From IMG/VR virus record IMGVR_UViG_3300028854_000008, positions 63,374 to 127,373 of that record: a DNA stretch of 64,000 nt. One strand, written 5' to 3'. Both the position numbers and the translations under genes were made by a program. Below the pieces are notes generated by a model. It saw nothing but the letters and a program-made list of their open reading frames with translations, did not search any database and was not told where the DNA came from. Positions 40,200-58,035 of this stretch are shown piece after piece; the first letter of the stretch is position 1; every line of letters starts with the position of its first letter. This stretch comes from a virus (lineage: Duplodnaviria > Heunggongvirae > Uroviricota > Caudoviricetes).

Positions 40200-40211
40200 G
40201 AGGAATATAAT

Positions 40212-41483: not shown

Positions 41484-41484
41484 A

Positions 41485-41742: not shown

Positions 41743-41754
41743 GAGGATATTATT

Positions 41755-42855
41755 ATGGCTTTGTGGCGAACTTTTGCTTGTAAAATTCAATTGCTTCCAC
41801 ATCCAAACGCAGATAGAATGGAAATTGCTCGTTGCAATTTCAATCAACTTGTGGTTGCTAAAGGAAATTATCAAGACGGTGATGTTATTGTCTTCGCACC
41901 AGAACGAGCAATTTTGCCTGATTCTTTGAAAGGCGAATATGTAAATTCTGAAACTGGAATCAGTTATCTTACTGGATCAGAGAAAAATAGAGTCAAAGCT
42001 ATCAAACTGAGAGGAGAACCATCAGACGGAATTTCCCTTCCTATTGAATGGGTATTGGAGCAAGTTCCTGAATGGAATTCTGTCAAAGATATTCCTTTGG
42101 ATATTGACATTTCAGAAAAACTTGGTATTTCAAAGTATGAACCTCCAATTCCTTATAATATGAGCGGAATTGTAAAATCTGTCGATACTTTAAATTTTGC
42201 ACCGAAAGTCGCTCATCACGATGTTGAACAATTTCGTTTGTTCGCTGATGAATTTGATAAAAATGAAGCTGTAATTTGCAGCGAAAAGTTGCACGGAACG
42301 CAAATCAATGTCTTTTTCTCTAAAACTGGAGAAATTGGAGTGTCTAGCAAAGGATTCAATTCCAGAGATTTGATCATTGAACAGGATGCAAAGAATCTCT
42401 ACTGGCAAGCACTGGAAAATTCTGGTCTAATTAATTTTGTTAAATGCGAAATTCTTGAGTCAAATGCTCCAGAACTATACAAATCAGATGTTCAATTGGT
42501 TGGAGAAGTAATTCCTTGCCAAAAGAATTTTACATATGGTCAAACCAAACCAATTCTGAAGCTATTTCGTTTTATTGTAAATGGCAAGGAATATTCAGTT
42601 CTTGATCTTAACAGAATTTATGGAAAACAGTTCTTGAAAGATCATTGGGTGCCAATTCTTTATCACGGAAAATTTGATCCTGAAATATTTGCAAAACTAT
42701 CTTCTGGAAATGAAACTGTCTCTGGAAAAGGTTTGCACATCAAAGAAGGCATTGTTATTGCTCCAGAAATTCCGCGAGTAGCGCGAAGAGGATTTCTCCT
42801 TCTTTTAAAATGGCTAAATAAGAATTATAAACCAACAGATGAGGATTTTTCTTAA
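41755..42855 (+). CDS. RNA ligase, Rnl2-like (KxHGT family) with N-terminal extension
   Basis: Motif I EKLHGTQ (T4 Rnl2 EKIHGTN), motif III QLVGEVIP, motif IV EGIVIAPE, basic motif V. Confidence 0.65.
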   Translation: MALWRTFACKIQLLPHPNADRMEIARCNFNQLVVAKGNYQDGDVIVFAPERAILPDSLKGEYVNSETGISYLTGSEKNRVKAIKLRGEPSDGISLPIEWVLEQVPEWNSVKDIPLDIDISEKLGISKYEPPIPYNMSGIVKSVDTLNFAPKVAHHDVEQFRLFADEFDKNEAVICSEKLHGTQINVFFSKTGEIGVSSKGFNSRDLIIEQDAKNLYWQALENSGLINFVKCEILESNAPELYKSDVQLVGEVIPCQKNFTYGQTKPILKLFRFIVNGKEYSVLDLNRIYGKQFLKDHWVPILYHGKFDPEIFAKLSSGNETVSGKGLHIKEGIVIAPEIPRVARRGFLLLLKWLNKNYKPTDEDFS

Positions 42856-43217
42856 TGTTTAATATTTGTGAAGACGATTTGACCAATTCAAATTTATTAA
42901 CTTTAAATTATACTAGAAGTGGAAAAATTGCATGTGCAATTCGTCAACTGTTTAACTGGTATTGCCATATTCAAAATAAGGAATATAATCTTCCTTATAA
43001 TGATGGGTATATCAACTATATACATGCTGATAAAAATTGGATTAAAGTTGATGGACTTATTAGTGGAAATGAATATCGATGGAATATTCCGATCCCATAT
43101 AGAAATGAAATGAATATCCCTACTAAATGGTTATTTCAGGAAAACTGGAAAGAATTAATTGAACAACAAATTAAACGAGATAAAAATGAATATCTCATAA
43201 AAAAATTAAGTGAATAA
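42855..43217 (+). CDS. hypothetical protein (ends LIKKLSE, tail family)
   Basis: ORF track. Confidence 0.5.
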   Translation: MFNICEDDLTNSNLLTLNYTRSGKIACAIRQLFNWYCHIQNKEYNLPYNDGYINYIHADKNWIKVDGLISGNEYRWNIPIPYRNEMNIPTKWLFQENWKELIEQQIKRDKNEYLIKKLSE

Positions 43218-43441
43218 TGGAGAGTTTTATGATTTTATTTTTAGTAATTTTATATCTAATTTCTACAATTGAAGCCACGTATTTTTTCAGTAAATCTTGG
43301 TTATTCTATAACGATTTATATTTGGGAAATTTGATTTTTTGTTTTATACTGGGACTTTTACCTTGTGCTTTCGTTCCAGCGTTTATATTATATTTAATAA
43401 CATATTCCAAGTTGCCAGCCCTTTTAATAAAGAAGAGATAA
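43217..43441 (+). CDS. small membrane protein
   Basis: two hydrophobic helices. Confidence 0.4.
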   Translation: MESFMILFLVILYLISTIEATYFFSKSWLFYNDLYLGNLIFCFILGLLPCAFVPAFILYLITYSKLPALLIKKR

Positions 43442-43764
43442 TGATTCCAGACGAATTAACGAGAGCATTACAATTGGTGGGGAAAGATCATCAATTAATT
43501 AATAACGAAGTTTCTATAATTTATAAAAAATTTCAAGAACTCAAATTGAAAATTTTGGGATATTCATGGAACAATAAATGTGTGTCTATTTTTGATGTAA
43601 TTGAATTAGATTATAATAATAAATTATTTTTCATTAATAAAAAACGTGGATGTTATTTATCATTTCCAATTCGTTGGCTCAGCGATCCAAATTGGGAAAA
43701 AGAAGCAATAGAAGGGATCAAAATTGAGAGAGATTATGCTCTAATTGACAAACTACAATCATAA
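43441..43764 (+). CDS. hypothetical protein (ends ALIDKLQS)
   Basis: ATG immediately after previous stop. Confidence 0.5.
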   Translation: MIPDELTRALQLVGKDHQLINNEVSIIYKKFQELKLKILGYSWNNKCVSIFDVIELDYNNKLFFINKKRGCYLSFPIRWLSDPNWEKEAIEGIKIERDYALIDKLQS

Positions 43765-43827
43765 GAAAACAAATGATTTATTTTGACTTTTAGGTTTATA
43801 TTTGCTGTTCTAGATTAGAGGATCAAA

Positions 43828-44925
43828 ATGATTGTTTTAAATAAACTGCTGAATGTCGAGACTTTGGAGCAATTAATTGCTGATGGATATATTTCTCGAA
43901 AATTTCACTCCAAATTTCCTTTGGCAATTTTGAACTATTCTCATAAAGCCAACTTTGATCCAAACTTGATATGGGGCAATGAGTTAAATTTCTGCCGAGG
44001 ATTGATTTACAATACTGAAACTTTAGAAATTGTTAGTCGTCCATTTTCCAAATTCTGGAACATTAATGATACTCGCCATCCTGAAACTATGGAAGAGAAT
44101 CTTCCCAACGATATTCCTCTAATCACATCAAAGATGGATGGGAGCATGGGAGTATTTTATCACTGGGATGGTGTAAATTATATTGCAACTCGTGGAAGTT
44201 TTGAGTCTGACCAATCAAATTGGGCCAATGAATGGCTTCATAAAAATTATCCTAATTTGATTCTTCCAAAAAATTATACTCTGCTATCAGAAATCCTTTT
44301 CAAATCTAATAGGATAGTCGTAGAATATGATTTTGAAGGACTTGTAATTTTGGGAGCAGTTCATAAAGAAACTGGCCAGGAATTATCACGTCAAAATCTT
44401 GTAGATTATTGCGATATTACTAATCTAAACATCGTTCAAGACCACACCAAGTCTTTATCTGAGTGTGTTTCTGAAGACTTACCCAATTTTGAGGGATATG
44501 TCTTAACTTATTCAAATGGGTTAAAAGTTAAAATCAAAGAATTGACTTATTGCACCCTCCATAAGATTATTACAGGTCTCAATCCTAAAGCAATTTGGGA
44601 ATTGAAGCGTGATGGAAAAAATGAAACTATTGATAGTTGGTTGAATGATAAAATAATGCCGATTGAATTCAAGAATTGGCTAAACAAGTGGGATGATCAA
44701 TTATCCAATGATTTCTACAAAATATTGATGACGGCTGAATCTATTTTTAATAAGCAACCAAAAACTAATTCTCGTAAGGAAATTGCAACATATTTCTTAC
44801 AAGGAGAAAACAAAGAGTATTCATCTATTTTATTCGGATTATTGGATGGCAAAGATGTTTCTCAAACAATTTGGAGAATGATTGAGCCAAAATTCAATGA
44901 CGTATTTAGAGAAGATGGAGAGTAA
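43828..44925 (+). CDS. rnlA: RNA ligase 1 (T4 RnlA-like tRNA repair ligase)
   Basis: Collinear blocks with T4 Rnl1: NFCRGLIYN, RPFSKFWNIND, motif I LITSKMDGSMGVFY, SEILFKSNRIVVEY, FEGYVLTYSNGLKVKIKELTY. Confidence 0.8.
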   Translation: MIVLNKLLNVETLEQLIADGYISRKFHSKFPLAILNYSHKANFDPNLIWGNELNFCRGLIYNTETLEIVSRPFSKFWNINDTRHPETMEENLPNDIPLITSKMDGSMGVFYHWDGVNYIATRGSFESDQSNWANEWLHKNYPNLILPKNYTLLSEILFKSNRIVVEYDFEGLVILGAVHKETGQELSRQNLVDYCDITNLNIVQDHTKSLSECVSEDLPNFEGYVLTYSNGLKVKIKELTYCTLHKIITGLNPKAIWELKRDGKNETIDSWLNDKIMPIEFKNWLNKWDDQLSNDFYKILMTAESIFNKQPKTNSRKEIATYFLQGENKEYSSILFGLLDGKDVSQTIWRMIEPKFNDVFREDGE

Positions 44926-44946
44926 AATCTCCATCTGATTTTTTAT
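44913..44946. terminator. bidirectional intrinsic terminator AGATGGAGA/TCTCCATCT + T tract
   Basis: Perfect 9-bp stem between convergent genes. Confidence 0.55.
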
Positions 44947-45350
44947 GTAATCCAATATTGATAAAACAAATTATCAGTTGTTGCTGGAACAGTTGTAAAT
45001 GTTATTGTTGTTCCGATTAAGGTATATCCAACACCAGGAATTAATGGAAAATTTTGCCATAAAATTAAAGTATTTGGTATTGGAATTGAAGGCAAAGAAA
45101 ATATATTATTTATGCCATCTTGACTACCAACTGGAACTCCAGCAACTGGGATAATATTTCCGCTTCCCTCAGACACTGTTGTTAAAATTTCTGTATTTCC
45201 AACAAATGGCGCTCCATCATCGATATCACCATTTCCAATAAAAAGTCTCTGAGAATCGATTGCCCAACCAAGTTCTCCAGTAGAAAGTTGCGGCAAATTT
45301 ATTTGCAGTCCGTGGCGAACTTCAATTTTGCTTGTCTGTTTTATGGCCAT
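44943..45350 (-). CDS. hypothetical protein (minus strand)
   Basis: AGAGGA SD before ATG on minus strand; convergent with rnlA. Confidence 0.5.
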   Translation of the reverse strand: MAIKQTSKIEVRHGLQINLPQLSTGELGWAIDSQRLFIGNGDIDDGAPFVGNTEILTTVSEGSGNIIPVAGVPVGSQDGINNIFSLPSIPIPNTLILWQNFPLIPGVGYTLIGTTITFTTVPATTDNLFYQYWIT

Positions 45351-45382
45351 TTGTTAAAATCCTCTATTGTATTTATTCAGAC

Positions 45383-45426
45383 TTGACATTTTGATTTGAT
45401 TTTGGTATACTGTATTTGTAGTGAGA
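45383..45426 (+). repeat. copy 1 of duplicated ~44-bp promoter unit ACTTGACATTTTGATTTGATTTTGGTATACTGTATTTGTAGTG
   Basis: Identical copy at 45645-45688; contains TTGACA-N17-TATACT. Confidence 0.7.
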
Positions 45427-45624
45427 AAGAGAGAAAAAATGGAAAGTGGAAAGTGGAAATATGTATGGTTCGATTTATCTTTTATTTTGTTCATCTTTGC
45501 ATGTACATTTTTGGCGTTTTTTCCTCCTATTGTGGCTGGATTTTGCTTGGGATTTTCTATTTTATGGGCTTTAATGGGAATTGGCGCAACTTTGCAAGAA
45601 ATTCTTGAGCATCTAAAGCGTTGA
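45421..45624 (+). CDS. small hydrophobic membrane protein
   Basis: ORF track. Confidence 0.4.
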   Translation: MRKREKMESGKWKYVWFDLSFILFIFACTFLAFFPPIVAGFCLGFSILWALMGIGATLQEILEHLKR

Positions 45625-45644
45625 TTCTATTCAACTTAAAAAAT

Positions 45645-45688
45645 ACTTGACATTTTGATTTGATTTTGGTATACTGTATTTGTAGTGG
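45645..45688 (+). repeat. copy 2 of duplicated promoter unit
   Basis: Exact direct repeat of 45383-45426. Confidence 0.7.
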
Positions 45689-45700
45689 AAAATAGGAAAA

Positions 45701-45838
45701 TATGAAATTTCTACTTGGAATGGTTATTGGATTTCTTCTGGTACTATTCATTTGGTTTTTCTTGATACCTGTCCTCGAATTTCTTGCAGTAATGGTAAGT
45801 TTGGCTATTATTTGCCTACCTAAGCACCGTTTTGATTG
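45701..45838 (+). CDS. small hydrophobic peptide (45 aa)
   Basis: ATG after second promoter copy; MKFLLGMVIGFLLVLFIWFF... Confidence 0.35.
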
Positions 45839-45968
45839 ACAAACAATTTGGATTCTGTTATACTAATTTTGTATTGTAATATTGCCTTGGATCAACGATT
45901 GATTGGCCAATGAGCAAAACCTCAACTGAGCAACAAAGTTGCTCCAAACCATAAAGGACAAATTATTT

Positions 45969-46529
45969 ATGAGTATTGTATTGGATGCACGCACTTTTTC
46001 GCACGCTGGCTCAACTCTTCACAACGGCACATATAAGGCCCGTTTTGCAAATCATCCTGCTGTTCGCACCAAGATTCTTACTGGAGAGGGACACACAGAA
46101 ATCGTTCTGGTTGAACTTCCAACTCCAATGAGCAAGCTTGAAGCAATTGCTTGGCTAAAGGAAAATAAGCCTGCTGGTGTAAATTTGGCATCACTTGATG
46201 CCAAGGAAAATTACATCAATAACCAGATTGCAACCATCACAAAGCAAAGTCTCCCAAAGACACCAAAGGTTGCGAAGGTGCCATCTGGTCGCAAGCGCGG
46301 TCGCCCTCGTCTGAGTGATGAAGTTAAGGCTGCTCGTCTTGCTGCGAAACGTGCTTCAAATCCAGTAAAGTCAGTAACTCCTGTAGTTGCTGAAGTTGTT
46401 CCAACTGTTGCAACCACCTCAAATCCTGTCGTAACTTCGATTGTTTCTGCTGTGAAGAAGTCGCGGTCAGGGTCAATTCGCGCCAAAGCTGCTTCTGTGG
46501 CTGCTGTAGCTACTGCTAATACAAAGTAA
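45969..46529 (+). CDS. AT-hook-containing basic DNA-binding protein (GC-richer)
   Basis: GRKRGRPR AT-hook, Ala/Lys/Val-rich C-terminus; promoter TTGACA-N17-TATACT at ~45835. Confidence 0.5.
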   Translation: MSIVLDARTFSHAGSTLHNGTYKARFANHPAVRTKILTGEGHTEIVLVELPTPMSKLEAIAWLKENKPAGVNLASLDAKENYINNQIATITKQSLPKTPKVAKVPSGRKRGRPRLSDEVKAARLAAKRASNPVKSVTPVVAEVVPTVATTSNPVVTSIVSAVKKSRSGSIRAKAASVAAVATANTK

Positions 46530-46583
46530 ATTCAAACACAGAGCCAGTAGAATTCACTTTCTGCTGGCTCTGAAAGGTTATAT

Positions 46584-46775
46584 ATGAAACTATTTTGGGG
46601 ATTAATTGAAACTGAGCCTAAACACAAACATACTTTTGATGGTGGTAAGTGGAATAATACAAATACATTGACCATGACTGCTTTTGGACAACCTGCTGGA
46701 AGCATCGATTATTATCAAAATACATGCTTGACTTGCGGAGAGTTAGTTGAAAAGGGATATAAAAGAGTGTCTTAA
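46584..46775 (+). CDS. hypothetical protein
   Basis: ORF track. Confidence 0.4.
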   Translation: MKLFWGLIETEPKHKHTFDGGKWNNTNTLTMTAFGQPAGSIDYYQNTCLTCGELVEKGYKRVS

Positions 46776-47014
46776 TGGAAGATTATCAAAAAGCAGTTGA
46801 ATTAAATTTGACAAAAATCGATAGATGTAGTACTGGTCAAGATCATCATCCAATGTCTGAGCGCATAATGAGATTTTTAGCGGAACATGCTTATAAAGAT
46901 CATAATGATTACTTTTGTTGGAAATTGGGCGGGGATGGAGATAACGGAGAAGAACTAATGTTTGAATTGGATACATTTTTTGAATTATTAAATAAAATTG
47001 AACATAAATTATAG
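46775..47014 (+). CDS. hypothetical protein
   Basis: ORF track. Confidence 0.45.
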   Translation: MEDYQKAVELNLTKIDRCSTGQDHHPMSERIMRFLAEHAYKDHNDYFCWKLGGDGDNGEELMFELDTFFELLNKIEHKL

Positions 47015-47020
47015 AGGACA

Positions 47021-47680
47021 ATGAATAGAGAAATTTTTAAACCTAAAGTAAGTTTGATTTCAATTACTCCAGATGCTGAAAAAGTTATTACTTATATTGC
47101 CAGAGTTTCAAATCCAGATAATCAAAATAATCCAAATATTGCAAAATTATTAAAATATTGTCTCGATGAAGGCCACGTTTCAATTTTTGAGCAAGCGTCT
47201 ATTACAATAGAAGTCGAAACACACTTGGCAATTGCAACTCAAATTTTACGACACAGAAGTTTTTGTTTTCAACAGTTCAGCCAGCGATATGCTGATGTTG
47301 GATTGTTAAATGAAAGTATTCCTTTATTTGAATTAAGAACTCAAGATACAAAAAATCGCCAAAATAGTTTAGACACACTAGACGAAAAAATAAAAGATCA
47401 ATTCTTGTTTAAAATAGAAAATCATTTTGTAGACGCAATGAGATTATATAATGAAATGATTGTATCAGGAATTGCAAAAGAATGCGCTAGATTTGTACTG
47501 CCTCAAGCAACAACAACTAGAATGTATATTACTGGAAATATTAGAAGTTGGATTTTTTATTTACGAGAGCGTCTCAAAGATGGTGTCCAAAAAGAACACC
47601 GAGATGTTGCAAAATTATGCCAAAATATTTTTATAGAACAATTGCCTGTCGTTTCGACAAGCTTAGGATGGAATAAATGA
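47021..47680 (+). CDS. thyX: FAD-dependent thymidylate synthase
   Basis: ThyX signature ILRHRSFCFQQFSQRY (RHRxxSxxxxSxR); size 219 aa. Confidence 0.9.
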   Translation: MNREIFKPKVSLISITPDAEKVITYIARVSNPDNQNNPNIAKLLKYCLDEGHVSIFEQASITIEVETHLAIATQILRHRSFCFQQFSQRYADVGLLNESIPLFELRTQDTKNRQNSLDTLDEKIKDQFLFKIENHFVDAMRLYNEMIVSGIAKECARFVLPQATTTRMYITGNIRSWIFYLRERLKDGVQKEHRDVAKLCQNIFIEQLPVVSTSLGWNK

Positions 47681-47955
47681 CTATTGAACAGCACGAAAAA
47701 ATTGTTGGAAATCGATTCACACTCACGCATTTAATTATCAAAAGAACCAAAGAACTAATGAATGGCGCTAGAAGTTCAAAATCGATATGCCAAAAATTTG
47801 GCATTCGCGGAGAAATTCCTAATCATCTAATGGCCAAAATTGCCTTGGAAGAATTAAGATTAGGAAAGTTACATTGGACTCAATCAAGTAATACAAATCC
47901 AGAACCTCTTATTTCAGATATTGCCAAGTCAAATAGCATTATTTTTGAAGGTTAA
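47677..47955 (+). CDS. hypothetical protein
   Basis: ATGA overlap with thyX. Confidence 0.45.
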   Translation: MTIEQHEKIVGNRFTLTHLIIKRTKELMNGARSSKSICQKFGIRGEIPNHLMAKIALEELRLGKLHWTQSSNTNPEPLISDIAKSNSIIFEG

Positions 47956-47984
47956 TAAAATTTACAAATTAAATTACTTTACAT

Positions 47985-48040
47985 ACATCGACAATCCAAC
48001 AATTAATGTCAAATTAGTGGCTAAATTGCTGTCTTAAAAT
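47985..48040 (+). pseudogene. orphan 3' remnant of a DUF4116 gene (encodes ..YIDNPTINVKLVAKLLS*)
   Basis: Matches C-terminal tails of 37642 and 53087 genes but lacks upstream repeats/start. Confidence 0.5.
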
Positions 48041-48044
48041 ATTC

Positions 48045-48102
48045 AAAACAAAGCACTTATTTTCTTATTGACAAATAAATTTATTTAGGATATTCTTTAT
48101 AT
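48045..48102 (+). promoter_or_regulatory. conserved promoter element copy
   Basis: AAAGCACTTATTTTCTTATTGACAAATAAATTTATTTAGGATATTCTTTATAT. Confidence 0.6.
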
Positions 48103-48768
48103 ATGAATGAAAAAGTACAAATGGCTGCTGTTCGACAATATGGTCGTGCAATTAAATACATCGACAAGCTAAGCGAAGCTGTGCAACTGGCTGTTGTTCG
48201 ACAATATGGTCGTGCAATTAAATACATCGACAAGCCAAGCGAAGCTGTGCAACTGGCTGCTGTTCAACAAAATGGTTGGGTAATTCAATACATCAGCAAG
48301 CCAAGCGAAGCTGTGCAACTGGCTGCTGTTCAACAAAATGGTCGTGCAATTAAATACATCGACAAGCCAAGCGAAGCTGTGCAACTGGCTGTTGTTCAAC
48401 AAAATGGTTATGCAATTTACCACATCAGCAATCCAAGCGAAGCTGTGCAACTGGCTGCTGTTCAACGAAATAGTTGTGCAATTGAATACATCGGAAATCC
48501 AAGCGAAGCTGTGCAACTGGCTGCTGTTCGACAATATTGTTATGCAATTCAATACATCGACAAGCCAAGCGAAGCTGTGCAACTGGCTGCTGTTCAACAA
48601 GATTGTTATGCAATTCAATACATCGACAAGCCAAGCGAAGCTGTGCAACTGGCTGCTGTTCAACAAGATGGTCGTGCAATTAAATACATCGACAAACCAA
48701 GCGAAGCTGTGCAAATGGCTGCTGTTCAACAATATGGTCGTCCAATTAAATACATAAGGAAAAGATAA
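48103..48768 (+). CDS. DUF4116-type tandem-repeat protein
   Basis: ~9.5 x 69-bp repeats. Confidence 0.7.
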   Translation: MNEKVQMAAVRQYGRAIKYIDKLSEAVQLAVVRQYGRAIKYIDKPSEAVQLAAVQQNGWVIQYISKPSEAVQLAAVQQNGRAIKYIDKPSEAVQLAVVQQNGYAIYHISNPSEAVQLAAVQRNSCAIEYIGNPSEAVQLAAVRQYCYAIQYIDKPSEAVQLAAVQQDCYAIQYIDKPSEAVQLAAVQQDGRAIKYIDKPSEAVQMAAVQQYGRPIKYIRKR

Positions 48769-48772
48769 TATT

Positions 48773-49393
48773 ATGATTGTAATTATAGGCGATGTTCATG
48801 GAAAATGGAATGAGTATAGTAAAATACTCAATAAATATCCAAATGAAATAAGTATTCAAATCGGCGACTGTGGTGTTGGCTTCCCAAAATCACCAGAATT
48901 AATATTACCAAAAAATGCATTTTGGTTTAGAGGAAATCATGATAATCCTGATACTGCAAAAAATCACCCCAATCATTTAGGAGACTTCGGATCAAAAATT
49001 ATTGACGGAATAAAGATTTTTTGGGTGGCTGGAAGTTGGAGCATTGATCAACAATTTAGAATTCCTGGATGGACTTGGTGGGAAGACGAAGAATTGTCAA
49101 TCAGAGAACTTGAAACTGCGATGGAGCAATATCTAAAAGTCAAACCAGATGTCATGCTAACTCATGATACTGCTGGACCGTTTGCATCCAAAATATTGTC
49201 AAAATATTCAATTATGGGTGACGGACTTGTTTATCCTACGAGAACTGGTCAAGCATTATCTGCTATGTTTGAAGCTTATCAACCAAAACTTTGGGTTTGC
49301 GGTCATTATCATGCTTCTGTTACTGAAATTATCAAAGGAACAAAATTTATTTGCTTAAACGAATTAGAATCACTGGAACTTACAAATGTTTAA
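48773..49393 (+). CDS. calcineurin-like metallophosphoesterase
   Basis: Motifs IGDVHG, QIGDCG, FRGNHDN, GHYH. Confidence 0.7.
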   Translation: MIVIIGDVHGKWNEYSKILNKYPNEISIQIGDCGVGFPKSPELILPKNAFWFRGNHDNPDTAKNHPNHLGDFGSKIIDGIKIFWVAGSWSIDQQFRIPGWTWWEDEELSIRELETAMEQYLKVKPDVMLTHDTAGPFASKILSKYSIMGDGLVYPTRTGQALSAMFEAYQPKLWVCGHYHASVTEIIKGTKFICLNELESLELTNV

Positions 49394-49512
49394 GAGTTTT
49401 ACATTTATTTCCGTGAAATCTTGTATAACTTGAACAATATATTGTATTATTGCAATGTTCACAAATTTTGGCATTTTTTATTTCTATTGCTTTTAATTAT
49501 TAAAAATTATTA

Positions 49513-49932
49513 ATGAATTGGAGTAGTATGAACTTACAATCATTTGAAATTATTAAAAAAAGCTATTATAATGATAATATTTCTTTAATTTTATCCATTG
49601 AAGAAATTAATACTCTTTGTGCGGCAGTAAATGAAGATCCGAGTTTATTAGCATGGATTTATAATTCCAATGATGATATTCAAATTGCAGCAATTAATTC
49701 AACATCAACAAAGGATTATAAAGATGGAAGAATTCTTCAAGTTATTAAAAATCCGTCTGAAAAAGTTCAATTGATTGCTGTCCAAAAAGATGGAGAATGT
49801 ATTCGTTATTTGAGGAATCCATCTGAAGCTGTTCAACTAGTAGCGATTAATCAAAATAAATTGGCAATTCGATATATTCGAGAACCATTCCAAAGTGTAA
49901 AAAATGCTGCAAAAATTTTTGTAGATAAATAA
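49513..49932 (+). CDS. divergent DUF4116-like repeat protein
   Basis: Repeats VIKNPSEKVQLIAVQKDGECIRYLRNPSEAVQLVAINQN. Confidence 0.5.
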   Translation: MNWSSMNLQSFEIIKKSYYNDNISLILSIEEINTLCAAVNEDPSLLAWIYNSNDDIQIAAINSTSTKDYKDGRILQVIKNPSEKVQLIAVQKDGECIRYLRNPSEAVQLVAINQNKLAIRYIREPFQSVKNAAKIFVDK

Positions 49933-50083
49933 TTATGAATTTTATATCTGAAGACGCATTACGTTATCGTGAATTAATGAAAGTATGGCACGATCAAACA
50001 GCGTATATCAATCTTTCTGGCATCAATGATCATCCAACATTTTATGAAATAATTGAGAATTACTCTTTTGAAGGAAAGAAACG

Positions 50084-50548
50084 ATGATTAAGTACGTGGC
50101 AGGATTTTTGTTTGATGAAGAGCAGAACCATGTAGCGCTGATTCTTAAAAATCGTGGCCCTGCGGTGCTTGTCGGAAAGTGGAACGCTATCGGCGGCAAG
50201 CGGATAGACAATCACGACTTGGGCCTCCCTGACGAAAGCAGCGCAGCGGCGATGTGGCGCGAATTCGCAGAGGAAGCAGGTGTCTATATCGAGAATTGGG
50301 AACCATTTTTGATTCTCAAGGCGAGGGGGCCGAACCCTGAATGGCAAGTGGATTTCTTCCACGCTTTCAGCACTGAAAAACTCGCTCAAGTTAAGACAAT
50401 GGAGCAAGAACAAGTGATGGTTTGGCACCTCGATGAGCTACCGGCTATTGTTCCTAATCTTAGTTGGATCATCCCAATGGCTCTAAACCACAAAAATGAG
50501 CATGTTTGGGTGTACGAAGTGATCGAAAAGGAAACTTTTGCAGCGTAA
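50084..50548 (+). CDS. NUDIX hydrolase (GC-rich, likely recent acquisition)
   Basis: Nudix box GGKRIDNHDLGLPDESSAAAMWREFAEEAGV; local GC ~50%. Confidence 0.75.
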   Translation: MIKYVAGFLFDEEQNHVALILKNRGPAVLVGKWNAIGGKRIDNHDLGLPDESSAAAMWREFAEEAGVYIENWEPFLILKARGPNPEWQVDFFHAFSTEKLAQVKTMEQEQVMVWHLDELPAIVPNLSWIIPMALNHKNEHVWVYEVIEKETFAA

Positions 50549-50711
50549 GGAATCAAGTATATAAGTACCAAATCCCAAAAATAAATTATAGATCAAAGTG
50601 AAATACTAGAAATTTGGTATATTTGAGGTAAAAATAATAATTACTTATAATTAAAAATTTAGGTTGAAAATCATTCCAAACTTTGTTATATGTAATTTAC
50701 TGGAGAAAATT

Positions 50712-50897
50712 ATGAGCAGATCAAAGAAAAAAGACGTTTTCAGCAAAGTGGCGGCTGTGAAATCAAACGCCCGTGATAGAATAGGTATGCCAAAGTCCTC
50801 TTTTGTCATTACTCCCAAAAGTGAAAAACCTGCTCGTTATAAGCCATCACTGAGAGATTTGCTGCGTGATGATTATGAAAATGAAGATAATAAATGA
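50712..50897 (+). CDS. hypothetical basic protein
   Basis: ATG after GGAGAAAATT SD. Confidence 0.4.
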   Translation: MSRSKKKDVFSKVAAVKSNARDRIGMPKSSFVITPKSEKPARYKPSLRDLLRDDYENEDNK

Positions 50898-51075
50898 ATC
50901 TAATTTATATAGTATTTGCGATTTTAATACTTATCAAATTGCCATTTGAAATCATTTCTTTTCGTCGTGATAAAAATGATAAGTTATTCAGAACAAAAAT
51001 TATAAATCATTGGATTACAACCATTGGGTTAATATTAGCTATGTTTATATTAACATTTCTTTAGGAAAGACAAAA

Positions 51076-51264
51076 ATGATATTTTTTCTCACAGTTTATT
51101 TGATGGTTGGTGCAGGAATATCTGCGACTATTTTAGATGGAGTCATTGATTATTTAATTAATCTTGACTCAACAAAGTATACAAATAATTTTTCATTGAA
51201 ATTATTTGTAGTTAGTTTAATTGTATTTTTTTGGCCAATTATTTTTATGTCTGGGAGAAATTAA
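51076..51264 (+). CDS. small membrane protein
   Basis: ATG after GGAAAGACAAAA; 2 TM. Confidence 0.4.
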   Translation: MIFFLTVYLMVGAGISATILDGVIDYLINLDSTKYTNNFSLKLFVVSLIVFFWPIIFMSGRN

Positions 51265-51975
51265 ATGCATTATATTCTTGCAAAATGTTGGAATAATCAT
51301 ACATGGGAAGGCAGAACAACTTCTCTGGAAAAATCAACATCTTTTAATAATCGAGGCGAACTAGAAAAGATGGTTCCTAGATTATGCCCAGAATGTGGCA
51401 ACGCATGTTATAATTATATTCTGGAATATAATGATCCATCATTTATTATTAATAAATTTAATGTTAGGACATTTGCTGGTGTTTTACATACAGATATTCA
51501 GGCCTTAAAAAATTATCCCAGTGATGAAATTTTGCGTGTTCTATATTCTGAAAATTTTGTAATTACAAAAACAGAAGGAAGTTATCCAACCAAAATCTAT
51601 TTAGAAAATAATAAAAAGCAAACTGCAATGATTGAATCTGAATATAGAAAAAAAATTGGAAAATTATATTTGGCTACACCAATAAATGATCCAATTATTA
51701 AAAAAATAAAAGCATCAGTAAAACTTGAAAACCAAAAAATAATAAAAACTAAAATTAAAATTACATCGATGCCAGATGTTATTGGCACTGATTTAAAAAT
51801 TGGAGATTGGGTTGCATTCGTTAAACACAACACTATTAATGTTGCAAAAATTATAAAATTCAATGAAAAGACTCTTGGATTAAAAGATAAAAAAGGGCGC
51901 ACATATTCTGCATATTCTCACAATTCATCTTTGTTAAACGAACAACAACTTTTAGTTTTTCTATTATCTAATTAA
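51265..51975 (+). CDS. hypothetical protein with N-terminal zinc ribbon
   Basis: CPECGNAC. Confidence 0.5.
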   Translation: MHYILAKCWNNHTWEGRTTSLEKSTSFNNRGELEKMVPRLCPECGNACYNYILEYNDPSFIINKFNVRTFAGVLHTDIQALKNYPSDEILRVLYSENFVITKTEGSYPTKIYLENNKKQTAMIESEYRKKIGKLYLATPINDPIIKKIKASVKLENQKIIKTKIKITSMPDVIGTDLKIGDWVAFVKHNTINVAKIIKFNEKTLGLKDKKGRTYSAYSHNSSLLNEQQLLVFLLSN

Positions 51976-52013
51976 ATTTAACCGACAGCAGAGAAGCTGT
52001 ATTGAAAGGTATT

Positions 52014-52894
52014 ATGCGAAAATTATTTACAATTATTATGTTGGCTATTGTATCATATGGAGTTATGGGATGTTCTGTTGCTACACCAGATGCTGGGCAT
52101 CAAGCAGTATGGATGGAAAAACCAATGTTTTTGGTCATGGCGGAGTTGATGCAAATCCAGTGCAAGCTGGGCGTGAATATGGTGCTTTTACGAGCGATGC
52201 TATTGATGTAAATATGCTACCTCAGCGAATGGATATGGAATTTGACGACATGATGACCAAGAGTGGTGTTCCAGTGAATTTTCATGTGGTCGCAACATTT
52301 ACTATTATTGATTCTGTAAAGCTTGTAAGCCATTATGGTGCTGACAGGGAATGGCTATCTTGGCAATGTCCAAAAGCTGGAGAGAGTTGCAATGGAGAGC
52401 CAGAAGGCTGGGGTTTCTGGGATCGAAACATCGATCAGCCTCTTCGTACTGCTGTTCGTGATTCAGTGAAGAAACGCGATATGCAAGAAATGGCAATTTC
52501 ACAAACTGCGGCAGATGTAGTTGGAGTTGAAATTTCAGCAGCAGCTATTAAAATTGTTCAGCAAACTGGAGTTCCAATTCTATTCTCTGCCATTAATGTT
52601 GGTCGTGTAAATCCTCCTGATGCTATTAAAAATTAACGAATTGAAACTGCTGCTCAGGAGCAGAGAGCAATTACTGAACAACAAACTAAGCTTGCTGAAG
52701 ATCAACGAAAAGCAGCAGAGCAAAGTAGAGCCAGCGCAGACAACGCTTACAGGAAAGATATGGAGTTGTCACCAGATCAATTTTTACAACTGGAACGTAT
52801 TAAGATGCAGCGCGATGTTTGCTCACATGGAACAACTTGCACATTTTTCATTAGCGGCGGGCCAAATCCAGTGATCGATGTTGGCAGAAAGTAA
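52014..52894 (+). CDS. SPFH/band-7 (stomatin/HflKC-like) lipoprotein disrupted by a frameshift (~52110-52130, A5 run) and an in-frame TAA (52634-52636); recoding candidate or pseudogene
   Basis: Signal peptide + lipobox VMGC in frame 0; SPFH core and coiled-coil continue in another frame through TAA (..NPPDAIKN*RIETAAQEQRAITEQQ..). Confidence 0.5.
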
Positions 52895-52907
52895 TTAAAA
52901 ATAACCA

Positions 52908-52942
52908 AAAAAATCCCAGCCAAATGGCTGGGATTTTTTTGG
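52908..52942 (+). terminator. intrinsic terminator AAATCCCAGCC/GGCTGGGATTT + T8
   Basis: Perfect 11-bp stem, long T run. Confidence 0.7.
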
Positions 52943-53029
52943 TTATTGAAAATTTTCCTGCTTTATCCTTTTCATAAATTTTCTACCAAAAGTAATATCT
53001 TTAGCTAAAAAATGGTATATTCAACAAAA

Positions 53030-53086
53030 TAAAGAACTTATTTTCTTATTGACAAATAAATTTATTTAGGATATTCTTTATATATG
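53030..53086 (+). promoter_or_regulatory. conserved promoter element copy
   Basis: Same 50-mer as 37592 and 48045. Confidence 0.6.
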
Positions 53087-53258
53087 GATGAAAAAGCACA
53101 ACTGGCTGCTGTTCAACGAAATGGTTGGGCAATTCAATTCATCAGAAATCCAAGCGAAACTGTGCAACTGGCTGCTGTTCAACAAGATGGTCATGCAATT
53201 GAATTTATCGACAATCCAACAATTAATGTCAAATTAATGGCTAAATTGCTGTCTTAAC
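53087..53258 (+). CDS. minimal DUF4116 protein (2 repeats, 57 aa)
   Basis: MDEKAQLAAVQRNGWAIQFIRNPSETVQLAAVQQDGHAIEFIDNPTINVKLMAKLLS. Confidence 0.5.
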
Positions 53259-53261
53259 ATA

Positions 53262-53316
53262 TTCAAAACAAAGCACTTATTTTCTTATTGACAAATCACC
53301 TAAAGTTTAGTATACT
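53262..53316 (+). promoter_or_regulatory. conserved element 5' half fused to different -10 region (TTGACA-N17-TATACT) driving CCA enzyme gene
   Basis: AAAGCACTTATTTTCTTATTGACAAATCACCTAAAGTTTAGTATACT. Confidence 0.55.
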
Positions 53317-53335
53317 TATTTTAGTGGAGAAAACT

Positions 53336-54661
53336 ATGACCAAGATGAATCAAAATGCGCTGGCAGTAATGGAGACTCTTGAAAATGCAGGGTACGATGC
53401 CTTTTTATGCGGGGGCGCGGTCAGAGATTTGCTTCTTGGCTTGACTCCACACGATTGGGATGTAACTACTTCTGCCCCTGCTGAAGTCGTGGATTCTCTC
53501 TTTCCCAATACAAAGATGGTGGGAGAAAATTTTGGCGTTTCTCTTGTTGAATACAATGGAGAAACATTTGAAGTTGCGCGATTCCGTCGTGATGGAGATT
53601 ATAGCGATAATCGCCGCCCAGATTTTGTGGACTTCACTTTGTCTGCTGAAGAAGATGTTGCTAGAAGAGATTTTACCATGAATGCTTTGCTCATGGATCG
53701 AAACGGAAATGTTTACGATTTTGTTGGTGGACAGACTGATTTGCAGAATGGTTTGCTCCGGGCTGTTGGAAATCCTGAAACTCGTTTCACTGAAGATGCA
53801 TTGCGTTTACTTCGAGCTGTCCGTTTCGCAGCGCGATTTAATCTTCGATTTGATCGGGAAACTCATGAAGCAATAGAAAAGAGGGCTTTTTCTGTTGAAA
53901 CTCTTCCGCCTGATCGTGTTAGCGGAGAACTTGTCAAGATGCTGACTGGTGGCAATGTCAATGTTGCTTTCAAGCTTATGGACAACACTGGATTGCTTCA
54001 GCATGTTTTGCCTGAAGTCAATGCAATGCGTGGTGTGGATCAAAATAGCAAATTTCATCCAGAAGGAGATGTTTTTCAGCATACTCTGCTCATGCTGTCT
54101 AAGCTTCCTGCGAATTGCAGCGTCACTCTTGCCTTGTCTGTCCTTCTTCATGATGTGGCAAAACCAACAACTGCTGTTCGTAACGTAAAGACTGGTGAAA
54201 ATCAGTTTTTTGGCCACGAAACAGTCGGTGCTGAAATGGCTGCAAAGATGCTTCGCAATCTTCGATTTTCAAATGAAGTTGTAGATGCTGTTAGCAGCCT
54301 TGTTTCTCAGCACATGAAGTTTTTCAACGTAACGAAGATGAATGATTCCAAGTTGAAGAGATTCGTTCGTCAGGAAAATTTCAGCGAATTGCTTGAACTG
54401 AATCGTCTTGATAGTCTTTGCAGTAATGGTGATCTCACTGATTTCAATTTTGCTGTTGATTTTCTTGCAAGTGTCACTGAAGAGTCTTTGAATCCTGTTC
54501 GTCTGCTTACTGGAAACGATTTGCAGGCAATGGGGTTGAAGCCTGGCCCGATGTTTAAGACTTTGCTTACTGCACTCGAAAATGCGCAGCTTGACGGGCG
54601 TGTAACAACTCGTGACGAAGCTGTATTTTTCGTTGAATCTTTGACTGGCGGAGACAGGTAA
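53336..54661 (+). CDS. cca: CCA-adding tRNA nucleotidyltransferase with HD domain
   Basis: Pol-beta NTase motif CGGAVRDLLLG..DWD, RRD, HD-domain LLHDVAKP; GC-richer than flanks. Confidence 0.85.
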   Translation: MTKMNQNALAVMETLENAGYDAFLCGGAVRDLLLGLTPHDWDVTTSAPAEVVDSLFPNTKMVGENFGVSLVEYNGETFEVARFRRDGDYSDNRRPDFVDFTLSAEEDVARRDFTMNALLMDRNGNVYDFVGGQTDLQNGLLRAVGNPETRFTEDALRLLRAVRFAARFNLRFDRETHEAIEKRAFSVETLPPDRVSGELVKMLTGGNVNVAFKLMDNTGLLQHVLPEVNAMRGVDQNSKFHPEGDVFQHTLLMLSKLPANCSVTLALSVLLHDVAKPTTAVRNVKTGENQFFGHETVGAEMAAKMLRNLRFSNEVVDAVSSLVSQHMKFFNVTKMNDSKLKRFVRQENFSELLELNRLDSLCSNGDLTDFNFAVDFLASVTEESLNPVRLLTGNDLQAMGLKPGPMFKTLLTALENAQLDGRVTTRDEAVFFVESLTGGDR

Positions 54662-54885
54662 ATCCTGTCTCCGCTTTATTTTGGAGGAATAATGCTAATT
54701 AAAACCAATAAAGATTATTCATACTTCTTGAATGTGTACCAAAACAAGACTGGAAAACATCCCACGTTTGTTGAGAGAACTGAAGCATTTTTCTGTGCAA
54801 AGGACGGGACTTTGCCAAATTGGATGTGGTGGTAATATATGAGCCATCACTTACGTTGAGTTCAAAACAGTTAAAAGGAGAAACA

Positions 54886-55098
54886 ATGCTTTATCTTGTA
54901 ATAATTTATGTATTCATCGGTTTTACTGTGGCTGGACTAGCAACTGATTTGACTATTAAAACTACGTTGGATCAAAAGCCTGAACTGACAGAATTAGTTC
55001 AAAAATCCATTTTTATATATAGATCAGTTTTAATTTTGTTTTTTGTAGTTGGTTGGGGGCCAATTCTCATTACATATTTTATTAAAAATAAACAATAA
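54886..55098 (+). CDS. small membrane protein
   Basis: ATG after AAAGGAGAAACA; 2 TM. Confidence 0.45.
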   Translation: MLYLVIIYVFIGFTVAGLATDLTIKTTLDQKPELTELVQKSIFIYRSVLILFFVVGWGPILITYFIKNKQ

Positions 55099-55145
55099 TT
55101 TGGGATATCATTGACTTTCACGATAAATACTGATACACTGTTAGT

Positions 55146-55427
55146 ATGAGGTGGAAAATGAATTGGATTGACGCTATTACCATTGAAAGCAATAAAAAAA
55201 TTCGAGAAGCTGGCAAGCATGTTGTGGTAATTCCTGCTCAAAATGTCTCTGCTCCAATCGATACATTCGATGTATTTGACGGAAATACCTGCCAATTTAT
55301 TGCCACTAATGTTTCAGAAAAGACCGCAAGCGAATTTGCATTAATTTGGAATGGATTGATTGATAATGGAGAAAGTGTGGAAAATATTAGTCGAATCAAT
55401 TTGGGATGGCTGACTGGAGTGAAGTAA
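55146..55427 (+). CDS. hypothetical protein
   Basis: ORF track. Confidence 0.45.
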   Translation: MRWKMNWIDAITIESNKKIREAGKHVVVIPAQNVSAPIDTFDVFDGNTCQFIATNVSEKTASEFALIWNGLIDNGESVENISRINLGWLTGVK

Positions 55428-55610
55428 ATGTATATTCCAGAAGAGATGTTTGCAATTCGTTCACACGCTCCAAACCGAAAATTTGAAATTTTTGGCACAA
55501 TAGTTTGTTTAACTTCTTCTTCTGAAATAGGTAGTATAATTGAAACTTTTAAATTTTCATCTAATCAAGAAGCTAAAGATGCAGTACTTTTGGTGAAATT
55601 ATCAACATGA
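55428..55610 (+). CDS. small protein, divergent member of EAKDFILIEKL-tail family
   Basis: ends NQEAKDAVLLVKLST. Confidence 0.4.
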   Translation: MYIPEEMFAIRSHAPNRKFEIFGTIVCLTSSSEIGSIIETFKFSSNQEAKDAVLLVKLST

Positions 55611-55825
55611 AAATTGATCTACAAGACGATTGTGATTTTCACAATATTGATTTTCATATCGGTAACGCTTGGAGAAGAAAGTTTTCTGTTGACTTATATA
55701 GAAGTTTTTGGTGTGTTAAAGTAACACATATTTCACGAACATTCCTTGCAACTAATTCGTATGTAAAATGTTCTTCAAAACAAGAAGCAACATTATTGGC
55801 ATTAGAATGCTCTTTATCAGAATAG
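55607..55825 (+). CDS. small protein (tail-family-like)
   Basis: ATGA overlap; ends KQEATLLALECSLSE. Confidence 0.4.
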   Translation: MKIDLQDDCDFHNIDFHIGNAWRRKFSVDLYRSFWCVKVTHISRTFLATNSYVKCSSKQEATLLALECSLSE

Positions 55826-55834
55826 AAAGGTAAT

Positions 55835-56029
55835 ATGGAGAAGAAAGTAACGAAAGATTTCTCATCAACAAAAGAAGCATTGGATTTTATCACTGCTCTG
55901 GAAAACCAAAAAATTAATGGTTTACTAAATTGTTTCTTGAACAAGGACAAAACATATAATTGGCTTGTAACATATATCCCAAAAACAACAGTAAAGGAAA
56001 AGAAAAATGAAGATCGAAAGATTGCTTGA
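55835..56029 (+). CDS. hypothetical small protein
   Basis: ORF track. Confidence 0.4.
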   Translation: MEKKVTKDFSSTKEALDFITALENQKINGLLNCFLNKDKTYNWLVTYIPKTTVKEKKNEDRKIA

Positions 56030-56975
56030 AGTTCCAACTGGCCATATTTGTATTGCTCAAGGTAGTGAAGGGAAAATTGAATTTTTATCTCTCGGAGATT
56101 ATGGGCAAGATGTAAATTTGAATCAACACAAAGCTGTTGCTCACCAAGAAATTATGCCTTTAACAGAAAAATGGGTAATTACAGTGTCAACGCAATTTGG
56201 GTGCAGTATGGGATGTAGTTTTTGCGATTGCCCCAAAGTTGGACCTGGAAAGAATGCGTCTTTTTACGATCTCACTGGTCAAATTTTGTGTGCGCTAAAA
56301 CTTCATCCAGAAATTACTGGCACAAAGAGATTGAATGTTCACTTCGCCAGAATGGGAGAACCTACTTGGAATCCTAACGTCCTTGATTGTGGAAAGTGGC
56401 TCCATACTCACATGAACGACACTTTTCATATTCATCCAGTAGTGTCAACAATGATGCCGCGTAGGAATATCTGGTTGAAGACATTCATCCACAACTGGAT
56501 GAGGATGAAGAACCGTTTGTACAACGGAAATGCAGGACTTCAACTGTCGATCAACTCAACGAGTAAGAGTGAGCGCGACAAGATGTTTCATAACAACGCT
56601 TGCACGTTTGAAGAGATCGCAAGGATTATGGAAGGAATTATTCCTGTAGGAAGAAAGATCACTCTCAATTTCGCTGTTGCCGGTTACGAGATTGATCCAA
56701 CCGTGCTATTGAACTACTTCGATCCATCGCTTTACGTGTGCAAGCTAACTCCGATGCATAAGACGCACACTGCTCTTGATAACGGGATTCAAACGGAAGG
56801 TGATTACACTGACTTCCATCCGTACATCCACCACGAGGATGCTTTGAAGAAGGCAGGGTATGATGTGCTCACTTTCATCGCTTCCGTAGAAGAGGATTTA
56901 GGTAGGATCACTTGTGGAAATGCCATTTTAAGTGGAACGCTTCCGCTGGTTGATTATAAAGAGACTTATTTATGA
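56007..56975 (+). CDS. RlmN/Cfr-family radical SAM RNA methyltransferase
   Basis: STQFGCSMGCSFCDC (CxxxCxxC), HFARMGEP, LQLSINSTSKSERDKM, KLTPMH collinear with RlmN blocks. Confidence 0.65.
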   Translation: MKIERLLEVPTGHICIAQGSEGKIEFLSLGDYGQDVNLNQHKAVAHQEIMPLTEKWVITVSTQFGCSMGCSFCDCPKVGPGKNASFYDLTGQILCALKLHPEITGTKRLNVHFARMGEPTWNPNVLDCGKWLHTHMNDTFHIHPVVSTMMPRRNIWLKTFIHNWMRMKNRLYNGNAGLQLSINSTSKSERDKMFHNNACTFEEIARIMEGIIPVGRKITLNFAVAGYEIDPTVLLNYFDPSLYVCKLTPMHKTHTALDNGIQTEGDYTDFHPYIHHEDALKKAGYDVLTFIASVEEDLGRITCGNAILSGTLPLVDYKETYL

Positions 56976-57604
56976 GTAACTTTGATAAACTGAAGAAACA
57001 ATTAGATAAAGCAGAGGAAAATGCTTCTATTAAACGTGAAGAATTTTATGGTTTAATCACAGAAGTATTGTCTGTATTTAATTTGAATAATGATCATTAC
57101 GACGATGTATGGTCAAATGAAACTCATGTAATTGTGAACTATAGCTGGAGGGCTGCTGGATGTAACTGCTCAGATTCTATTACTCTCCCAAAGTCAATTT
57201 TTGATGCTGCTGATCCTGTTGCCGTCGCAAAAATTTATAAAAATGATCTTGATAATAGCAAGAAAAAGTCTGAACGTTCAATAAAATTAGAAGAATTTAA
57301 TGCTTTAAAGAAAGAACTTGGTGTAAAAATAATGAAAGCAACTCATCCAATACAACCATTAGTTAGCGACAAAGTTGGAACAACCAGATTTAAAGAAAAT
57401 GCTATTGTTAGCTATCTTATTGACATTGCAACACAAAAAGGCATAGCAGACATGAATTCTCTGGCTATTATGAATTTCTCAAATGAAGATCGTGAGCAAT
57501 TTGCTCAACTGATTGGATATTCATTGGACGGATTTGGTGAATTATCATATGTAAGTGATGAGACATATGATTTGGCTGCAAAGCAAAAAGTTTTTAAGGA
57601 ATAA
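56972..57604 (+). CDS. hypothetical protein
   Basis: ATGA overlap with upstream gene. Confidence 0.5.
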   Translation: MSNFDKLKKQLDKAEENASIKREEFYGLITEVLSVFNLNNDHYDDVWSNETHVIVNYSWRAAGCNCSDSITLPKSIFDAADPVAVAKIYKNDLDNSKKKSERSIKLEEFNALKKELGVKIMKATHPIQPLVSDKVGTTRFKENAIVSYLIDIATQKGIADMNSLAIMNFSNEDREQFAQLIGYSLDGFGELSYVSDETYDLAAKQKVFKE

Positions 57605-57639
57605 ATACAAGTGTTAAATAACGCTCGTGAAAGGACAGT

Positions 57640-57700
57640 ATAAAATCAACGGACAACACACCGGTTCAACTCCGGTCAGGTCCACCAAATTTATGATTCA
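57640..57700 (+). ncRNA. tRNA-like 3' half (T-arm ACCGG-TTCAACT-CCGGT + acceptor strand CAGGTCC + A + CCA); possible permuted tRNA/tmRNA-like piece
   Basis: Canonical T-arm and encoded CCA; complementary acceptor strand GGGCCTG lies 28 nt downstream, not upstream. Confidence 0.3.
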
Positions 57701-58035
57701 ATGTTTTATTTGGGCCTGTCATGGTATCGATTGACGTGTGGTTGGACTACTGACGAGCCGACTGGTGTGGCCATCGTAAATGGACACATAAACAATAATT
57801 GCTACCTCTGGTATCAATGGCAGTGCAAAGATTTTCACGTATTCTGTGAATCTCCGCAACACTGAGCTAGTAAACGCCTAATAAGCTTTACTCCGAGGAG
57901 TTGTTCCGTCCTTGTAAAAGAAACGGAACTATAAAATTTCCTTTAACAACTCAGTAGATCACTGCATATAGGACAATTTTATTTTGCATCTAGAAAATAA
58001 TGTAGATATTTCATTCTTATAGATAAGTTATCATC

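Follow-up and report, generated by a model that had tools for sequence, protein, structure and literature searches.

An SPFH/band-7 lipoprotein gene of an uncultured AT-rich phage is very probably a recently inactivated pseudogene

Introduction

How should a phage gene be read when its signal peptide stands in one reading frame, its conserved core stands in another, and the last part of its coding sequence lies behind an in-frame stop codon? This question is raised by positions 52014-52894 of the 64,000-nucleotide stretch of phage DNA analysed here (the window). A sequence-only reading had proposed an SPFH/band-7 lipoprotein gene that is interrupted both by a frameshift at an A5 run and by a TAA codon, and had offered two explanations, namely a decaying pseudogene or programmed recoding. 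SPFH genes are recurrent in large phages, where their function is poorly understood (PMC7760394; PMC10892097). Our analyses indicate that an uncultured AT-rich phage carries an SPFH/band-7 lipoprotein gene here as an accessory gene, and that this copy is very probably a pseudogene of recent origin.

Layout of the locus

The window has a GC content of 33.5%, and nearly all of its ORFs are located on the plus strand. At the locus (Table 1), frame 0 read from ATG 52014 (or TTG 52002) gives MRKLFTIIMLAIVSYGVMGC and then SVATPDAGHQAVWMEKPMF, and continues into nonsense until a stop at 52209-11. In the -1 frame, ...FGHGGVDANPV... leads into the SPFH core, which extends up to the premature TAA; past this codon the frame remains open (RIETAAQEQRAITEQQ...) for 85 codons until the TAA at 52892-94. 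This 85-codon stretch (RIETAAQEQRAITEQQTKLAEDQRK...TCTFFISGGPNPVIDVGRK) is highly similar to homologs, and the TAA that closes it coincides with the homolog ends. The translations thus agree with the earlier placement of the signal peptide and lipobox in one frame and of the SPFH core in a second (-1) frame, and they bear out the homologous tail beyond the in-frame TAA. The signal peptide consists of MRK, LFTIIMLAIVSYGV and MG ahead of the cysteine, and it is that of a lipoprotein (as judged by rule from the sequence); G19 and C20 of the lipobox are invariant in the homolog alignment. The SPFH core carries a Cys-containing insertion, WQCPKAGESCNGEPEG. By its appearance, the hairpin that follows the natural stop looks like a bidirectional intrinsic terminator.

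Table 1 Features of the SPFH/band-7 locus, in window coordinates.
Feature	Position	Strand	Remarks and basis
SD-like GAAAGG	52004..52009	+	4 nt 5' of ATG 52014; sequence
Alternative start TTG	52002	+	L102 counterpart is ATG; L102 alignment
Lipoprotein signal peptide, frame 0, MRKLFTIIMLAIVSYGVMG-C	52014..52073	+	Lipobox VMGC; Cys20 is TGT 52071-73
Mature protein codons 1-18, frame 0, SVATPDAGHQAVWMEKPM	52074..52127	+	Translation, homolog alignment
A5 run, not the lesion	52117..52121	+	L102 has GGAAAAGCC; homolog and L102 alignments
Frameshift lesion, T5 run	52128..52132	+	Ancestral T6 (ATG TTT TTT GGT, M F F G)
SPFH/band-7 core, -1 frame (GHGGVD...PPDAIKN)	52133..52633	+	167 codons
Premature TAA at invariant Gln position	52634..52636	+	One C>T change suffices
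Stranded C-terminal helical (coiled-coil) region with Cys-x5-Cys tail	52637..52894	+	85 codons and stop
Strong hairpin with flanking A and T runs	52901..52947	.	Right after the natural stop
188-aa ORF reported by gene callers	52070..52636	+	ATG arises by chance within lipobox codons, absent in L102

The intergenic stretch upstream of the gene (51976-52013) contains a small hairpin, ACAGCAGAGAAGCTGT, and is ~95% identical to positions 1147-1186 of the related contig L102 that is described below. In this comparison it is more conserved than the adjacent coding sequence, and it stands intact ahead of the dead gene. This stretch may be a terminator or a regulatory element.

Family assignment and homologs

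To search for homologs, we used the conceptually repaired protein of 293 aa as a query. Its match to Pfam Band_7 (PF01145; 41.5 bits against a cut-off of 23.6) spans residues 47-228, corresponding to profile positions 19-172 of 176, and therefore crosses the stop at residue 208. In the DNA itself the Band_7 frame is broken twice, by the one-base deletion at 52128-32 and by the TAA at 52634-36. The protein also matched the PHROG 200 'lipoprotein' family (7.7e-17), and so Pfam, PHROG and the lipobox all agree with the proposed identity as an SPFH/band-7 lipoprotein. Overall, 1,749 proteins matched the repaired query at E<=1e-10, with the top match at 1.3e-158 (82% identity, 100% coverage). The best 120 of these 1,749 homologs are single proteins of 245-308 aa that share 68-82% identity with the query over 88-100% of its length. 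Such matches to the repaired protein place the homology of the two frames far beyond chance. Using tblastn, we additionally found intact copies in 17 phage records (26-39% identity, 88-98% query coverage).

The closest intact homologs are chromosomal genes in peat MAGs of Terracidiphilus and other Acidobacteriaceae (65-80% identity), with a locus GC of 56-61%, while the contigs of three further homologs for which the DNA was read (P0001-P0003) have a GC of 45-53%. The relatives of this gene, taken on their own, give a weak hint that the phage may have an acidobacterial host. The genes for P0001 and P0003, which are among the closest intact SPFH genes, lie on mid-GC contigs downstream of a common acidic low-complexity gene (L015 1-360; L104 55-651), and L104 also has an HNH-like ORF. 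This arrangement suggests that the SPFH subclade is also present in another group of phages, unrelated to the first.

Searches for close relatives of the phage itself returned little. A DNA similarity search of GenBank phages with the locus gave no match, and a search of IMG/VR with the neighbouring DUF7205 protein and the CCA enzyme gave no relatives. With the SPFH protein as a query, IMG/VR yielded only intact copies of <=75% identity on GC-rich contigs that have no common gene order. Low-GC contigs ('Saccharibacteria' or unclassified MAGs, GC 39-48%) were considered as relatives and rejected, as they have only the SPFH gene in common with the window.

With regard to the ancestral protein, the lipid anchor, the invariant C270-x5-C276, the SPFH core and the helical tail indicate that it was probably a periplasm-facing, lipid-anchored SPFH scaffold that would have oligomerised via its C-terminal helices. 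The further Cys pair in the insertion is suggestive of a periplasmic, oxidising location. C-terminal helices are needed for the assembly of SPFH oligomers such as HflK/C, QmcA and stomatin. Sequence searches for a more specific identity gave no NCBIfam match to HflK, HflC or another SPFH-type family, only marginal stomatin matches in the PDB, and no PADLOC match, hence no link to a known defence system. No partner subunit gene adjoins the locus, the neighbours being the DUF7205 gene and a DUF4116 gene. As judged from these comparisons, the ancestral protein is not an orthologue of HflK or HflC.

The frameshift lies at the T run

Across the shift site the window reads CCA ATG TTT TT-G GTC, and the addition of one T to the T5 run gives P-M-F-F-G-H-G-G. 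In an alignment of 20 homologs, E35, K36, P37, F40, G41, H42, G43 and G44 are invariant, and several intact homologs read exactly EKPMFFGHGG. The two Phe codons are TTT TTC and TTC TTT in P0002 and P0003, respectively. A shift at the A5 run (52117-52121), as had been proposed, was rejected, given that it would yield EK-TNV-FGHGG and lose the invariant Pro37. The earlier reading had therefore picked the wrong homopolymer, as both Pro37 and the contig L102 show.

L102 is a divergent, AT-rich phage contig of 1,551 bp from JGI 3300042090, with a GC content of 33.7% and the same gene order as the window (small membrane protein, DUF7205, SPFH gene). Its DUF7205 protein is the sole non-identical homolog, in the protein collection, of the one encoded at 51265-51975 (62% identity), and its SPFH fragment is 86% identical to ours. 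The contig stops 125 codons into the SPFH gene, short of residue 208, and a scan of metagenome contigs for an extension past this end found none. At the shift site L102 reads ATGTTTTTTGG, with a T6 run that encodes Met-Phe-Phe-Gly in a single frame and has exactly one T more than the window (ATGTTTTTTGGCCATGGTGGT vs. ATG-TTTTTGGTCATGGCGGA in the window). The A run of L102 is interrupted (GGAAAAGCC), with AAG in place of the AAA codon. Because L102 is in frame with T6, the shift represents a one-base deletion in the lineage of the window rather than a conserved recoding site. Between codons 40 and 111, we counted 30 synonymous and 5 non-synonymous codon differences between the window and L102, which argues that purifying selection acted on the SPFH frame during most of the period after the two lineages split.

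The premature stop and the reality of both lesions

The premature TAA replaces Gln208 (in KNQR), which is invariant in the 20 aligned homologs and is encoded by CAA or CAG in all five intact genes for which the DNA was read. With these codons in the homologs, a single C>T change accounts for the stop. Comparison with orthologs, which the earlier reading had called for, thus showed single-frame genes with Gln at the TAA position and identified both lesions as derived.

Both lesions are genuine, and sequencing error is excluded. Over 1,011 bp (51950-52960), seven contigs show 100% identity; they come from three samples at JGI (3300028859, 3300029922 and 3300029913), two at ENA (ERZ27249201 and ERZ27249686) and one at Logan (SRR8554894). 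One of them (L001/L007) represents a distinct strain that carries the same broken gene and differs from the window at 59 SNPs elsewhere (12 across 48115-56134 and 47 across 40150-48755). In its exact form, the broken 188-aa ORF has been recorded in 14 contigs. An exact look-up in ~15 billion proteins retrieved only double-broken fragments, with no intact allele, no allele combining T6 with TAA and none combining T5 with CAA. Given that the gene has disabling lesions when compared with its intact orthologs, and that these are really in the DNA, it is very probably a pseudogene.

Conservation, composition and age of the inactivation

Apart from the two lesions, the window copy shows little sign of decay. 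At the 158 alignment columns with >=95% conservation across the 120 best homologs, it deviates only once (G281S), while the intact homologs have a median of 0 deviations and a 75th percentile of 1. Five residues of the window copy occur in no homolog; none of them precedes the shift, one lies in the core and four (K248, D249, E251 and S281) follow the TAA. The presence of four of these five private residues after the TAA is nominally above expectation (p about 0.035), and would suggest that the stop arose first and that the tail then drifted. The distance-ratio test disagrees, however, as C-terminal divergence is 0.64 times that of the core, an unremarkable ratio that is exceeded in 32 of the 120 intact homologs. 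The private changes may predate both lesions.

The composition of the gene is in line with this conservation. All three segments have kept the coding periodicity of GC1>GC2>GC3, and GC1 (0.57) and GC2 (0.42) of the window copy are like those of the homologs. Its GC3 is 0.27, compared with 0.16-0.53 in the surrounding phage genes and 0.37-0.68 in the homologs. A phage-like GC3 together with a preserved protein points to a long stay in an AT-rich genome followed by a recent inactivation, and the near-absence of decay outside the lesions likewise points to a recent event. Stop codons would be created in this gene by ~4% of random substitutions and by 9% of G:C>A:T transitions. At these rates, one additional disabling change beside a handful of others is unsurprising, and fits a pseudogene of modest age. 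Of the proposed decaying pseudogene, the pseudogene part is upheld by the lesions as compared with homologs and L102; the decaying part goes too far, since the gene is otherwise conserved like its intact homologs. Nonetheless, conservation needs to be interpreted with caution, considering that it is also expected under recoding and does not, by itself, separate a very fresh pseudogene from a gene that is still expressed.

The comparisons outline the following history. The gene belongs to a family common to phages and to Acidobacteriaceae (Terracidiphilus-like) bacteria. It was then long maintained by purifying selection among AT-rich phages, and its third positions drifted to phage composition while the protein stayed 72-82% identical to intact homologs. 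In the lineage of the window, a T was lost from the T6 run at codon 40, and the resulting frameshift became fixed. At Gln208, which is invariant in the homologs, a nonsense change (CAA>TAA) was probably fixed in this lineage as well. From the native start, only a lipoprotein stub of 65 aa would now be made, and no functional SPFH protein would be expected.

Alternative readings

It is conceivable, although in our judgement quite unlikely, that a fragment of the gene has been kept for a new use, either as the 65-aa lipoprotein stub or as an anchorless 188-aa core translated from ATG 52070. This ATG has a GGAG 7 nt upstream, and the 188-aa ORF is the one that gene callers report. Moreover, phages usually delete dead DNA fast, and yet the locus is whole in every strain seen. 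Both the ATG and the GGAG, however, arise as a by-product of the codons for the lipobox, L102 has neither of them, and the 188-aa product would have neither an anchor nor the C-terminal helices for oligomerisation. The stub consists of the signal peptide followed by 19 residues of the native protein and 26 that are out of frame, and this out-of-frame tail has no homologs; neither the exact 65-aa sequence nor the 69-aa sequence is present in the protein collection. Retention of a fragment would also leave the intact-looking 3' part of the gene unexplained.

Programmed double recoding is a reading to which we assign very little weight. Ribosomes would slip back by one base at the A5 or the T5 run and pass the UAA-C stop, so that a low level of the full-length lipoprotein is produced, and the lesions would thereby act as a throttle on expression. 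The main point in its support, as in that of the other alternatives, is the lack of decay, with the sequence outside the lesions being as conserved as in functional homologs. The SD, the start and the terminator are intact, and the same allele is fixed across all assemblies. At the A5 run, Lys-tRNA could re-pair perfectly one base back, and the premature stop is followed by C (UAA-C). C at +4 is the weakest termination context in E. coli. Against this, two unrelated and rare mechanisms would be needed in one gene, and both would have to have arisen after the split from L102. Neither the T site (G TTT TTG) nor the A site (G GAA AAA C) forms an X XXY YYZ heptamer, and the RNA structure in the 67-80 nt after the T run and the TAA is no better than in shuffled sequences (z of +0.10, +0.46 and -0.01), leaving the putative slip without a canonical heptamer or a stimulatory structure. 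A slip on the A run would, in addition, swap out the invariant Pro37. No suppressor with anticodon UUA was found among the 31 tRNAs of the window and the 10 kb upstream of it (~74 kb in total; within the window, 23 tRNAs detected by ARAGORN and 1 by Rfam only; in the upstream 10 kb, read on a 111-kb contig, 7 tRNAs). TAA closes 45 of the 62 ORFs of >=100 aa, including this gene's own natural end, and is the main genuine stop, and Gln is encoded at the premature stop position in all comparators. Finally, the shift is not conserved in relatives, as L102 is in frame and each of the 120 best homologs aligns as one protein with 88-100% of the query. On these grounds the suggestion of programmed recoding is not supported.

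A more modest version, in which a trickle of full-length SPFH lipoprotein escapes via slippage at A5 or T5 and UAA-C readthrough, possibly aided by the tRNA set of the phage, appears to us just as remote. If it were true, the two 'lesions' would be a recently evolved low-dose control of a toxic membrane protein. Transcriptional slippage and phase variation were also considered and rejected, since all assemblies have T5 and neither process would remove the TAA. Runs of five are short for transcriptional slippage or phase variation.

The notion that a homopolymer miscount (an error that the earlier reading had named among the outcomes that would overturn it) and a base-call error disguise an intact gene is scarcely credible: one lesion does sit in a homopolymer, but short reads are not prone to errors at a T5 run, the other lesion is a substitution, seven contigs that three pipelines assembled separately from six or more samples or runs agree base for base (a distinct strain included), the neighbouring genes (441-aa CCA enzyme, two RNA ligases, PNKP and ThyX) are full-length single calls with the expected Pfam domains, and the repaired allele is absent from the protein collection.

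Significance and annotation

A recent pseudogene thus remains our preferred reading, and the locus would be a clean case of a fresh pseudogene that has become fixed in a natural phage population. As phages usually purge dead DNA quickly, this is mildly notable. It is also an ordinary case of a known family that matters little alone. More broadly, SPFH lipoprotein genes are common to peat Acidobacteriaceae and several unrelated phage groups. For annotation purposes, the locus is best described as a pseudogene with a T-run lesion and not as a recoding site, and the public 188-aa and 44-aa calls as its fragments.

Other features of the phage

Several further features of this phage were identified in the course of the analysis. 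A permuted (two-piece type) phage tmRNA is located at 57591-57972 (Rfam match at 57623-57828; RF04321, 73 bits against a 47-bit cut-off), for which ARAGORN gives the tag peptide ATSGINGSAKIFTYSVNLRNTELVNA. The tRNA set is large, with 23 genes at 1055-21846 and 7 at L018 4739-9032, and covers most amino acids. Several of these tRNAs, among them Pro 6201-6288, Arg 8223-8309, Trp 19983-20076 and Tyr 20090-20180, have an unusual length of 87-97 nt and may contain inserts or introns. The tRNA at 7118-7188 was missed by ARAGORN and detected by Rfam (44.6 bits), and a rescan of the short interval by itself did not reproduce the Rfam match; it folds into a cloverleaf with a UUC (Glu) anticodon, its T-loop (GGCAGCA) is atypical and its ACCA end is encoded. 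An RNA repair and maturation cluster (40212-44925 and 53336-54661), as labelled by Pfam, comprises a PNKP-like kinase/phosphatase (Zeta_toxin/AAA_33 and HAD_PNKP), an RNA_ligase-family gene, a T4 Rnl1-type ligase and a full-length CCA-adding enzyme. This cluster fits a phage that defends its tRNA pool.

The window also encodes four DUF4116 genes (37657-38294, 48115-48755, 62873-63322 and 53025-53219), composed of tandem repeats of 66 bp (22 aa), with Pfam E-values of 1e-5 to 1e-32 and a mutual DNA identity of 85-93%. The last of these is the small gene directly 3' of the SPFH pseudogene. Strain-level differences between the assemblies seem to stem mostly from these DUF4116 repeat genes. With regard to metabolic genes, a ThyX thymidylate synthase is encoded at 47021-47680, and a gene of the NAMPT/NAPRTase type is located upstream of the window (L018 1346-2764).

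Comparison with known systems

Programmed -1 frameshifting, as in dnaX (A AAA AAG) or the phage tail chaperone G/GT, likewise involves two frames that overlap near a homopolymer. The window gene differs in having no heptamer and no structure, in a shift that is not conserved in L102, and in a second block, the TAA, further downstream. Stop-codon-recoded phages are known with TAG>Gln (code 15) and TGA>Trp (code 4). They resemble the present case in that an in-frame stop stands at a Gln position in a tRNA-rich phage. In the window, by contrast, the stop concerned is TAA, the main genuine terminator here, no suppressor was found among the 31 tRNAs and only this gene is affected. The HflK/HflC complex that modulates FtsH in E. 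coli has the same succession of an SPFH domain and a long helical region, but it is anchored by an N-terminal transmembrane helix, whereas the anchor of the window protein is a lipid-modified Cys.

The phage SPFH lipoproteins of PHROG 200 are closer in design and have the same signal peptide, lipobox, SPFH core and helical tail as this gene. Examples include the 'lipoprotein' of Tunturiibacter phage Tunturi_3, the 'SPFH domain-containing protein' of Xanthomonas phage X1, the 'band-7-like membrane protein' of Stenotrophomonas phage Siara and the 'putative FtsH protease regulator' of Pseudomonas phage PaBG. These phage genes are intact single ORFs (26-39% identical), in contrast to the frameshift and premature stop of the window copy. 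The closest counterparts are the 278-aa chromosomal SPFH lipoproteins of Acidobacteriaceae and the homologs P0001-P0004, an insertion-bearing clade from mid-GC contigs of phage-like character, which are 72-82% identical over the full length and share with the window copy the GC residues of the lipobox, GHGG, NPPDAIKNQR and the C-x5-C tail, all of them invariant. P0001-P0004 also have the WQCPK...C insertion, as does the window gene. Unlike the window copy, which has a GC of 42%, these genes are intact, have a GC of 45-61% and stand in a bacterial or unrelated phage context.
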